Shown in pieces: positions 15,001 to 18,695 of a DNA stretch of 18,695 bases. Made by a program: the position numbers. The DNA is from a virus (lineage: Duplodnaviria; Heunggongvirae; Uroviricota; Caudoviricetes). Positions within the stretch are counted from its first letter, which is position 1. Each line of letters starts with the position of its first letter. The DNA is taken from positions 1 through 18,695 of the IMG/VR virus record IMGVR_UViG_2778261593_000006; one strand, written 5' to 3'.

Positions 15001-18000
15001 TGCCAACCCAGGCAACAACATCCACCGCATCACCGGTCAGGTGGCGGCTGTTCATGGTCTGGCTTTTCCCTTCCGCGACCAGCTGTTTCTGGCGTTCTTT
15101 CGTGCGCAGCCCTTCCGTAATACCGAAATCAACCTCCGTCAGCTCCAGCGCACGGCGAACGACAGCAACCAGCTGTGGTTTAACGCCCTCCAGATTCTTT
15201 TCGCTGCGACGACTGAATCTGAATTTACCCGACATATTCACCTCAATAATGGAAAGATTTTTGTGACGTTCCCGCGCGCGCGTATCACCAGCACGCAGAA
15301 CAGCAGATTAAAAAACACTTCCAGCCAGCCCGTTGCTAACGGGCGACCACACAGATAGCTGAGGGGCGCAAAGGCATACAGCAGCATCAGCAACCAGGCC
15401 AGCCATGACATCAGCGGTTTATGTCTGGAATCACGACGACGATAAAAAAAGAGCGTCAGCACGATAACCGCGCATAACGCCACATTCAGCAATCCGGGAA
15501 GGTTACTTAACATTGCCGCCTCCTCCGCCCCGCAGGCGGGAGAACAGACCGGACACCAGTGATGCGATATCCTGCTGGTGAATGAACGACAGAATCTTCA
15601 CCGACACTACTGCCACCAGCACTGCACACAGCGCATCAACAGGCCCACTGTCAAACCCTGTGTGCTTTACCAGCCAGGATGCCAGAACCTCTGCGCCCAG
15701 CACGCCGATAATGAACGACACCAGAAAATGCGCCGCCACACGCCAGGCTGAAAGCGCCTGCGGCATTGTTGCCACAAATAACGCCCCGGCGAACGCACCA
15801 AACACAATCCCGAAATCCGTTCCGGTAAACAGCCCGAATACCGTCGCCCCGCCGAGCGCCACAGCCGTGCCGGAACCGGACAAGGGTTCAGACATACTTT
15901 TTCTCCTGTAAATAAAAAAGGGCCACCAGCGGCCCATAAAAACAACACCCGGTCAAAGGCACCCGCAGATGCCTTTTATGCGGTGCTATTTTGTTTTGCG
16001 CAGTAGAGGCCAGAGCACGGCCAGCACAGCACCACCAACACGCCCTCAGCAAGCACCGACATCAGGTGTCAGGTGAAATTGATGCTTCTTTTATGGAACG
16101 TAGGTATTACCTTAAGGGTAAACCGGCAAGTGCTGAGTTATTTGAGCAAAGTAAAGTGATGATCTTCACCCAACTACAGACCCAAAAGGGGCGTGAACGC
16201 CCCTGTGTTTATATGACTTTAACGAAAACACTGACCAAATTTAATCAGCATCCACAACACTAATAATATCTGCGTCCAGAAACAAAAGACGCGCATAAAT
16301 AAACCGTAGATTCTCAGTTAAACTTCACCTGGGCAAAGCCTGAGCCTGAACTGCAGGTATTAGATATGATTGTTACAGTCATCCCTGTCAGCTGAGCACT
16401 TTGTAACAATGGCTGCAAATTCCATCTGTTCGTCCAGTATTCTCTTCCTGACACCTTCACAGTAAAGGTATTATCCTCATTATACTTGGAAAACTCAATT
16501 TTACCTTTAGCACAATCCGCCGCCATTGCATTAACAGAAACCAATGCAAATAAAACCGCTATAAACATCTTCTTCATTCTTAACTCCTTTCATTCACCAG
16601 TTGTATATAAAGACTGTGACTTTCTGTTCAGAAACGCTGCTGCTGTATTACTTTCCCATAATGTATTGTTTATTTTTATAACGGGCCTGTCGCCAGTTAT
16701 CTGACATTCTGGTTGACTCTCTTCATTCACGGCGCGAACAGAACGCGCGCCCTGATGATGGCAATTCAGTATAACGGCCACAGTACCAAGTATCGCTGAT
16801 ATATTATTAAAGGATATTCTCCCCACTCTGACACCAGCCTCTCCCCGATACTCCGGAAGCACATTGCTGATTCTCCCCCAGTTCAGAGTGAGGTCCACGT
16901 CTTCCGGCGTCATCGTATAAACAGGAGCAGTTTCAGACAGTGCCAGACGAAATTCTCTCTGTATTTGCCTGAACCGTAAGGCTTCTGCTGTGACAGTGAC
17001 AAAACGCAGAACTGCTCTTGATGCATCTCTGGTCATTGTATTACCACTGAACTCCATTAACGCCAGATATGATGAAACCAGTGAGTGACGACTGATTTGC
17101 ATTCCGGAACGTTCCAGCGCTGCGACACGTTGCAGAGTGGTATAACTGCTGTCCGTTGTCATGGAAATAGTTGTCACACCGGGCAATGATATATGTGCAA
17201 AATCTGAAAATCTGTAGAAAGTATTTGTTGTCGTATTAACAAATCCAGCCACATATAAATTATTTCGTTCAATAATCAGACGAAGATGGTCAAAACGCTC
17301 CTGATAAACATCAAGCCCTCGTATACCTACGGAAATATAACTTCCTGGTGGTGTATGATTAATAACGGATACCGATGTAGCTCCCTGAGATATATGTTCA
17401 AGAGGGGTCGATATCGCTGTCCGTATACTATTTAACGAAGATACATAACTTTGTTGAGTCGAAAAGTCTATCGTAAACTCCTGGGAATAGGATACCGAAG
17501 AAAAACCCAGTAACAGACACAGTATCCACTTTAACAATATACACTTCATATACATATATTCCTTTTAGTTAAGGTAATCAGTACCAGACCCGGCGCAGAT
17601 ACAAAAAAGCCCGCAGAAGCGAGCCAGGGAAAATAAGTGTGGCGCGTTGTACTGGATTCGAACCAGTGACCGATTGCTTAGAAGGCAATTGCTCTGTCCG
17701 ACTGAGCTAACAACGCATGATGCAGATAATGGACCGCCATCCAGGACTCGAACCCCGCACCAACAACCCTGTTATCGTGTCGTCTGCTCTTCCTGATGAG
17801 CTAATGGCGGTATGTTATGGTGGCCCTTGCTGGATTTGAACCAGCGACCTGGCGATTATGAGTCGCTCGCGCTCACCACTTAGCTAAAGGGCCGGGCGCA
17901 GGATAATAACGGTACGTAACTAATTCTGCAATATCATCCGTTCTGACTGACTAAATCCTGAACTTCCCTCACCGTCTGCTCAAAACGCCCGGTCTCCAGC

Positions 18001-18695
18001 TCAACGCCAATTGCACGACGTCCCAGCGCCATCGCTGCTTTGACCGTCGAACCCGACCCCATGAAAAAATCTGCAACCAGATCTCCCGGACGACTGCTGG
18101 TGGTAATTATCTGACGCAACATCTCCGCCGGTTTTTCACAGGGATGTTTGCCGAGGTAATACTGTACAGGCTTATACATCCAGACATCCGTATACGGAAC
18201 AGCAGCCGATACAGAAAAATAACGCCGCAGTGATTTGTATTCCTCCAGCAGGCTGGCGTATTGACGGTTCAGTTCACTGTATGTGCTGACCAGCTGGTGG
18301 TGTGGCTTTTCCAGTTCCCCGCGCTGATGCTTTTCTGCTGCAACACGCGCAAACAATGCCTGCAGTTTTCTGTAATCAGCTTCGTTCGGTAACTGCCACT
18401 GACTGGCACCAAACCAGTGCGAAGCCATATTTTTCTTTCCGGTGGCTTCCGCTATCTGTTTTGACGTTATTCCCAGTGATTCACGCGCATCACGAAAGTA
18501 AGAAATCAGCGGGGCCATGACGTGCTGTTTAAGCTTGCGCCCCTGTGCCACATAGCCGTCATTTTTGGGCTGGTAGGGCCCCTGATAATGTTCAGCAAAC
18601 AGAATGCGCTCTGTTGCCGGGAAATACGCCCGCAGGCTTTCCTTGTTGCATCCGTTCCAGCGTCCGGACGGCTTCGCCCAGATAATGTGGTTCAG

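Follow-up and report, generated by a model that had tools for sequence, protein, structure and literature searches.

An orphan M.EcoGII-family methyltransferase gene upstream of stx2e in a Shiga toxin prophage: a probable protector of phage DNA after induction

Introduction

The closest described counterparts of the gene examined here are M.EcoGII and its paralogue M.EcoGI from Escherichia coli O104:H4 C227-11. The gene lies at the end of a Shiga toxin 2e (Stx2e) prophage sequence of 18,695 nucleotides (nt) from IMG/VR (record IMGVR_UViG_2778261593_000006, Caudoviricetes), whose full length is referred to below as the window and which carries terminase, portal, lysis and stx genes. We hold, with good confidence, that it encodes a beta-class N6-adenine methyltransferase belonging to the M.EcoGI/M.EcoGII family, an orphan carried on a prophage, which is probably silent in the lysogen and would protect phage DNA after induction.

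M.EcoGII methylates adenine in any DNA context, and also acts on RNA and DNA:RNA hybrids in vitro (PMC5778455, PMC7544214). Lysogens do not express it, its expression is harmful, and it has been proposed to switch on as the prophage starts lytic growth, defeating restriction (PMC5778455, PMC12707154). M.EcoGI, M.EcoGII and their O111 homologues produce no detectable methylation in lysogens (PMC5778455, PMC6602927). The target-recognition domain of M.EcoGII has been placed centrally in the protein (PMC5778455, PMC11551740), its reconstructed ancestors retain DNA methylation activity, and M.PflMI, the site-specific enzyme closest to it, shares only 27% identity (PMC11551740). Murray et al. noted a strong similarity between M.EcoGII and the methylase of phage 1720a-02 (PMC5778455). 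The same working mode has been proposed for the promiscuous alpha-class adenine methyltransferases of phages (Drozdz et al. 2012, cited in PMC5778455).

A methylase at this position in Shiga toxin (Stx) phages has likewise been documented. The order Q, DNA methylase, tRNAs and stx was drawn by Steyert et al. 2012 in their Fig. 5 (PMC3491183), the layout is described in PMC8456039, and a methyltransferase gene sits immediately upstream of the stx2e operon in 37 of 52 porcine strains (PMC12571312). The literature and RefSeq thus already cover the gene and its family, the biochemistry of a paralogue and the location beside stx.

Results

An open methyltransferase frame at the window edge

On the minus strand, 18695 to 17934 translates as 253 sense codons without an internal stop and ends in TGA at 17936-17934. 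The frame runs open to the window edge, so the gene extends past it, and the window holds the C-terminal 72% of the protein. The gene and its motifs are listed below; dN/dS is the ratio of non-synonymous to synonymous substitution rates, and RM10740 is an E. coli strain whose coding sequence (CDS) is identical over the window part.

17934-18695, minus strand: 3' part of a DNA methyltransferase gene, codons 100-352 of 352 plus TGA (open frame, PF01555, identity to the RM10740 CDS, dN/dS)
18051-18065, minus strand: motif I (FxGxG), here FMGSG, the S-adenosylmethionine (SAM)-binding loop, residues 310-314 (translation, alignment to solved beta-class methyltransferases)
18129-18146, minus strand: HPCEKP, the HPxxKP motif found ahead of motif I in beta-class methyltransferases, residues 283-288 (alignment)
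18153-18647, minus strand: central region, about residues 116-280 with approximate boundaries, presumed DNA-binding or target-recognition part and linker (no counterpart in alignments of solved methyltransferases)

The fragment matches the Pfam family PF01555 (N6_N4_Mtase) at 91.7 bits (E = 8.5e-26), against a Pfam cut-off of 26.7. The match covers profile positions 76-219 of 221, which places the N-terminal third of the domain outside the window; the full-length RM10740 protein scores 150.3 bits (E = 1e-43). Methyltransferase models from PHROG and PADLOC give E-values of 1e-105 to 1e-156. Compared with the homologues in phiP27, STEC276 and 1720a-02, the window gene evolves under purifying selection (dN/dS 0.09-0.13), which indicates that it has been maintained by selection. 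The Pfam score and dN/dS together place the feature far beyond chance. Judged from its sequence, the gene is real and probably functional.

The two remaining minus-strand frames of 17934-18695 are full of stops. Three plus-strand open reading frames (ORFs) of 43-72 amino acids inside the region were set aside as spurious, since none matches a PHROG and all run antisense to the methylase frame, on which purifying selection is strong. Base composition over the gene shows nothing unusual.

Motif order and the catalytic half

The FMGSG loop sits within D-F-F-M-G-S-G-S-T and is invariant in M.EcoGII and in all relatives aligned. HPCEKP, which aligns with HPTQKP of PDB chains 9c3u and 8urk, is likewise invariant in the family alignment. 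Solved beta-class N6-adenine methyltransferases match the protein in two stretches, an N-terminal catalytic half and a C-terminal SAM half. A first-pass annotation of this DNA had described a beta-class amino-methyltransferase with a C-terminal FxGxG motif, partial in the window, and the frame, the PF01555 match and FMGSG bear this description out.

The same annotation named an absent or disrupted catalytic motif IV as one refuting outcome. The DPPY codons lie outside the window and were read in relatives, of which RM10740 is 100% identical over the overlapping 2.4 kb. RM10740 carries an intact 352-codon CDS (WP_089565165.1) with IVTDPPYF at residues 32-39 and DPPY at 35-38, and IVTDPPYF occupies the same residues in the intact 352-amino-acid proteins of STEC276, phiP27 and 1720a-02, so that motif IV is present as far as close relatives can tell. 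Across these relatives the motifs run DPPY, central region, HPxxKP, FxGxG. DPPY preceding FxGxG is the beta-class order, and DPPY rather than SPPY points to the N6 of adenine as the methylated position. A Dam-type, alpha-class GATC methyltransferase was rejected, as its motif order is reversed and the protein has no Dam-family match in Pfam or NCBIfam.

Membership of the M.EcoGI/M.EcoGII family

The full protein is identical to M.EcoGII at 306 of 349 positions (88%; 85% over the window part), a figure that is probably 1% too low given that the M.EcoGII sequence, machine-read from a PDF (Supplementary Table S1 of PMC11551740), has a few evident misreadings. Compared with the methylase of 1720a-02, 309 of 352 residues are identical, with no insertions or deletions. 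This full-length similarity lies far above that to any site-specific enzyme, and on sequence grounds the window gene belongs to the M.EcoGI/M.EcoGII family. About 30 of the 47 positions that differ from M.EcoGII fall between residues 141 and 280, the 47 including an unaligned C-terminal tail and likely optical character recognition errors.

The window protein is 86% identical to the reconstructed ancestor Anc291 and 70% identical to Anc284, and the active reconstructed ancestors are much further from M.EcoGII than the window protein is. Identity to M.EcoGII and the activity of these ancestors suggest that the window allele probably also methylates adenine in any context. The label 'site-specific DNA-methyltransferase' would therefore be better replaced by 'N6-adenine methyltransferase of the M.EcoGII family, probably non-specific'.

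Relatives of the segment and mosaicism of the window

At least six complete genomes of porcine or feral-pig E. coli match the final 1136 bases of the window at 100% identity, and in them the CDS is intact and not a pseudogene; phiP27, the Stx2e reference phage, matches these bases at 96.7%. Over the window part, the phiP27 product L24, annotated as 'putative DNA methylase', shares 96% of amino acids, and by sequence the window gene is the phiP27 L24, or Stx2e-phage, allele.

Identity to E. coli RM10740 is 100% over 16250-18695, which spans stx2e, the tRNAs and the methylase, whilst the lysis region (14000-16000) shows more than 130 differences from RM10740 and only a handful from STEC276. For STEC276 the pattern is reversed, most of its differences from the window falling within the methylase gene (33 mismatches at 18250-18695). 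By these comparisons, the window is a mosaic in which recombination has joined RM10740-like with STEC276-like segments.

Orphan status and late-operon setting

No restriction endonuclease gene adjoins the methylase in the window, nor within the 4-8 kb on its far side in RM10740 and STEC276. The term 'orphan' used in the first-pass annotation therefore stands, as neither the window nor the gene tables of phiP27, RM10740, STEC276 and 1720a-02 show a flanking endonuclease gene. A Type II restriction-modification system was rejected for lack of an adjacent endonuclease, the PADLOC label 'MTase_II' reflecting a generic methylase model only. In phiP27 alone, a 409-amino-acid gene of the GIY-YIG nuclease family, L22 (L001, 7997-9226), lies two genes upstream of the methylase, between Q and the pair formed by a winged helix-turn-helix (wHTH) ORF and the methylase; it is absent from RM10740 and STEC276.

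The gene order of the relatives runs Q gene, hairpin, 65-amino-acid wHTH ORF, second hairpin, leader, methylase, ileZ, degenerate tRNA, argO and stx2eAB. The upstream alignment comprised four phages (RM10740, STEC276, phiP27 and 1720a-02) with four different Q antiterminator genes; by Pfam, the Q of RM10740 is of the DUF1133/Phage_antitermQ type and that of STEC276 of the PF03589 type, those of phiP27 and 1720a-02 being taken from record annotation only. Homology among the four begins exactly at a tR'-like hairpin with a T-run (folding free energy -23.7 kcal/mol, z -4.3), a strong element that is shown by alignment and folding and was missed by the terminator scan. The ORF that follows is winged-helix-like, falls in PHROG 331 (function unknown), matches TrmB weakly and below the cut-off, and has an identical protein in RM10740 and STEC276. 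Beyond it lie a second hairpin with a T-run and a leader of about 145 nt that is nearly invariant across the four aligned relatives and precedes the methylase ATG; in RM10740 this leader has no Rfam match. The conserved stretch from the first hairpin to the leader lies just outside the window in RM10740 (L002, 9434-9935).

A position after Q and two terminator hairpins, and before the tRNAs and stx2eAB, marks the methylase as a late-operon gene. The simplest reading of this arrangement is that the gene would be transcribed only when Q permits read-through of the terminators, as part of one transcript that also covers the tRNAs, stx2e and the lysis genes, which is consistent with the silence of M.EcoGI- and M.EcoGII-type genes in lysogens.

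Downstream tRNAs and stx2e

The elements that follow the methylase on the same strand are given below in transcription order.

17818-17893, minus strand: tRNA with anticodon CAU, ileZ-type, tRNA-Ile in the annotation of phiP27 and of the Prokaryotic Genome Annotation Pipeline (PGAP) (ARAGORN; Rfam tRNA, 58.9 bits)
17730-17811, minus strand: degenerate tRNA-like element in the argN position (alignment to argN of 1720a-02 and to a chromosomal element near yahM)
17640-17716, minus strand: tRNA-Arg with anticodon UCU, argO (ARAGORN; Rfam tRNA, 71.7 bits)
17608-17625, minus strand: terminator-like hairpin and T-run between argO and stx2eA (consensus scan only)
16590-17549, minus strand: stx2eA, Shiga toxin 2e A subunit (960 of 960 nt identical to the annotated RM10740 gene)
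16314-16577, minus strand: stx2eB, Shiga toxin 2e B subunit (264 of 264 nt identical to stxB2e of RM10740, phiP27 and STEC276)

The CAU tRNA starts 40 nt after the methylase stop codon. An earlier statement that the methylase lies directly upstream of a tRNA cluster and stx thus holds in the direction of transcription, though only two of the three elements in the 'cluster' can be recognized as tRNAs. An Rfam scan of 16000-18695 returned those two alone, all else being the antisense strand of a tRNA or far below gathering scores.

The middle element, at 17730-17811, is called by neither ARAGORN nor Rfam and is labelled 'tRNA-OTHER' by PGAP in RM10740. Its acceptor and T-arm match argN (tRNA-Arg, UCG) of Stx2a-type phages, and in place of its D and anticodon part stands a longer sequence that shares 86% identity with a tRNA-like chromosomal element of 82 nt. 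Most E. coli carry this element in their core chromosome, close upstream of yahM, and ARAGORN calls it an 81-nt tRNA-Ser(GGA). By alignment, the prophage element looks like a recombinant or decayed argN.

The hairpin at 17608-17625 falls inside the expected single late transcript and would be read through only by Q-modified polymerase. For stx2eA, a mechanical ORF list places the start at the ATG at 17555 (321 amino acids), whilst all relatives are annotated from the ATG at 17549 (319 amino acids, MKCILLKW...).

Distribution among complete genomes

At least 80% of a query comprising the methylase and tRNA segment was covered in 1740 of 5426 complete E. coli genomes (about a third), and stx2 lay next to the segment in 150 of these 1740. 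With stx2 adjoining so rarely, the methylase-tRNA unit is a general lambdoid late-region module and is not tied to the toxin. In many Stx2a phages (VT2-Sakai, P13771, PA4 and O157:H7 prophages), only the last 37 codons of the gene (window 17934-18044) survive ahead of the tRNAs, with 89-92% amino-acid identity. By sequence comparison, the methylase-bearing arrangement looks ancestral and the 933W-type junction between Q and stx a deletion or replacement.

Discussion

The proposed role of the methylase follows the late operon through induction. In the lysogen, transcription from the late promoter would halt at the terminators and the methylase would remain silent. Upon SOS induction, Q-modified RNA polymerase would read through these terminators, and the methylase would then be made alongside the tRNAs, Stx2e and the lysis proteins. 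Working on phage DNA as it replicates, the enzyme would move methyl groups from SAM to the N6 of adenines with essentially no regard to sequence context, and the chromosome of the doomed host would be methylated collaterally. Packaged genomes would consequently arrive in the next host already protected against type I, II and III restriction systems with adenine-containing sites, whilst the methylome of the lysogen would be unaffected. Within this scheme, the non-specificity of the window allele, its dependence on Q and its protective effect against restriction are what we infer as most likely.

Two functions had been offered by the first-pass annotation, protection of phage DNA from host restriction and alteration of host methylation in the lysogen. 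Protection is favoured over remodelling of the lysogen methylome because the characterized member of the M.EcoGI/M.EcoGII family is non-specific and unexpressed in the lysogen. For the same reason, comparing the methylomes of a lysogen and a cured strain would be uninformative, since neither a motif nor a signal is expected; N6-methylated adenine (m6A) made by a functional family member should instead be sought in virion DNA or induced cells rather than in the resting lysogen.

Several observations weigh against this role. The first 99 codons, including DPPY, lie beyond the window, and the evidence that they are intact in the source genome comes from relatives; among the complete E. coli genomes in the collection, none is 100% identical to the whole window, or to its last 6 kb. 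Non-specificity was measured for M.EcoGII, and the approximately 12% of residues that differ here cluster in the central, presumably DNA-binding, region. We found no paper showing late-promoter dependence of the methylase gene or methylation of Stx-phage virion DNA. No sigma-70-like promoter was detected on the minus strand near the methylase, a weak point, since the scan also missed pR'. Many successful Stx2a phages of the 933W/Sakai type keep only the last 37 codons, which makes the methylase dispensable for a successful Stx phage.

The clustering of substitutions also bears on the strongest alternative, that the enzyme is an active N6-adenine methyltransferase but a sequence-specific allele, its central substitutions having restored or created a recognition motif. 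Besides the concentration of differences from M.EcoGII at residues 141-280, the name 'site-specific DNA-methyltransferase' is given to some family members by RefSeq and PGAP. We consider this alternative unlikely, however, as far more divergent reconstructed ancestors keep their activity and the closest site-specific enzyme known shares no more than about 27% of residues with M.EcoGII (PMC11551740), whilst the PGAP label is generic rather than experimental and the protein aligns with its 1720a-02 homologue without insertions or deletions.

Expression in the lysogen, with the methylase acting as an epigenetic regulator that alters the host methylation pattern, is very unlikely. Other prophage methyltransferases do act in this way, such as M.EcoGIII of the O104:H4 Stx2 phage (PMC6602927), and the near-invariant leader of about 145 nt in the four relatives could hide a promoter. 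Set against this, lysogens carrying M.EcoGI, M.EcoGII or the O111 homologues show no detectable methylation from these enzymes (PMC5778455, PMC6602927), constitutive expression is deleterious (PMC5778455, PMC12707154), and the gene sits behind two late-strand terminator hairpins with no sigma-70-like promoter found on that strand.

We give equally little credence to the gene of the source genome being a decaying remnant or pseudogene, truncated or disrupted in the N-terminal part that lies beyond the window. Truncation is common elsewhere, with only the last 37 codons surviving in many Stx2a phages, and another gene occupies the position upstream of stx2e in 29% of 52 porcine Stx2e strains (PMC12571312). 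The 253 codons in the window are nevertheless uninterrupted and 100% identical in nucleotide sequence to intact CDSs in at least six complete genomes, and known remnants are far shorter than the window fragment.

Improbable to a similar degree is that the methylase acts as a functional partner of the whole cassette (terminator, wHTH ORF, methylase, tRNAs and stx) and not merely as an anti-restriction accessory; if it did, its activity on RNA and hybrids, or blanket m6A on the template, might affect the co-transcribed tRNAs, late or stx transcripts, or host DNA transactions following induction, and having or lacking the methylase would alter the amount or timing of Shiga toxin per induced cell. 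Least probable of all is that the relevant substrate is RNA, with m6A on the co-transcribed tRNAs or on late and stx transcripts tuning translation of late genes or toxin: M.EcoGII does methylate RNA and DNA:RNA hybrids in vitro (PMC5778455, PMC7544214) and the gene lies immediately upstream of phage tRNA genes on the same transcript, but RNA activity varies about 12-fold among family members, which has been read as neutral drift of a side activity next to conserved DNA activity (PMC11551740), and the methylase-tRNA module is about 10 times more frequent without stx2 than with it.

Protection of phage DNA after induction by an M.EcoGII-family enzyme thus remains the probable role. Its significance extends little beyond correct annotation of this very common prophage gene; our literature search found no experiment on the role of the methylase in any Stx phage.

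Comparison with known systems

Like the window gene, M.EcoGII and M.EcoGI of E. coli O104:H4 C227-11 are prophage-borne and lack a cognate endonuclease. M.EcoGII has 349 amino acids and the protein of the window allele 352, and both show the same order of DPPY, central region, HPxxKP and FxGxG; the window allele differs by about 40 substitutions, mostly in residues 141-280, and by a C-terminus that is three residues longer. The counterpart in the Stx2e phage phiP27 is L24 (NP_543076.1, in NC_003356; Recktenwald & Schmidt 2002), which occupies the same place in a series of wHTH ORF, methylase, ileZ, argO and stx2eAB. It differs from the window gene by 10-11 amino acids in the window part, and phiP27 has a different Q gene and only two annotated tRNAs.

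A cassette shared with the window locus, comprising Q, a small regulator-like ORF, methylase, ileZ-argN-argO and stx2, is also found in '45-kb' type Stx2a, Stx2c and Stx2d phages and in 1720a-02 (for example LC567838, AP012536 and KF030445). Their methylases are about 85% identical to the window gene in nucleotide sequence and 85-88% identical in amino acids; argN, degenerate in the window, is intact in these phages, and their stx2 subtypes and backbones are different.

Promiscuous alpha-class enzymes and phage Mu Mom are proposed to carry out broad adenine modification in lytic growth only, being silent in the lysogen and toxic if mis-expressed (PMC5778455, PMC12707154). Neither is homologous to the window gene in architecture: the alpha-class enzymes are ordered FxGxG, target-recognition domain, DPPY, and both the reaction and the adduct of Mom differ from those of the window gene's family. 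M.EcoVT2Dam and M.EcoGV are, like the window gene, orphan N6-adenine methyltransferases of Stx prophages (PMC6602927), but they are GATC-specific, alpha-class, encoded in the early or replication region and unrelated to it in sequence. Phage 1720a-02 also carries a Dam-like methyltransferase about 3.5 kb upstream of its M.EcoGII-family gene.

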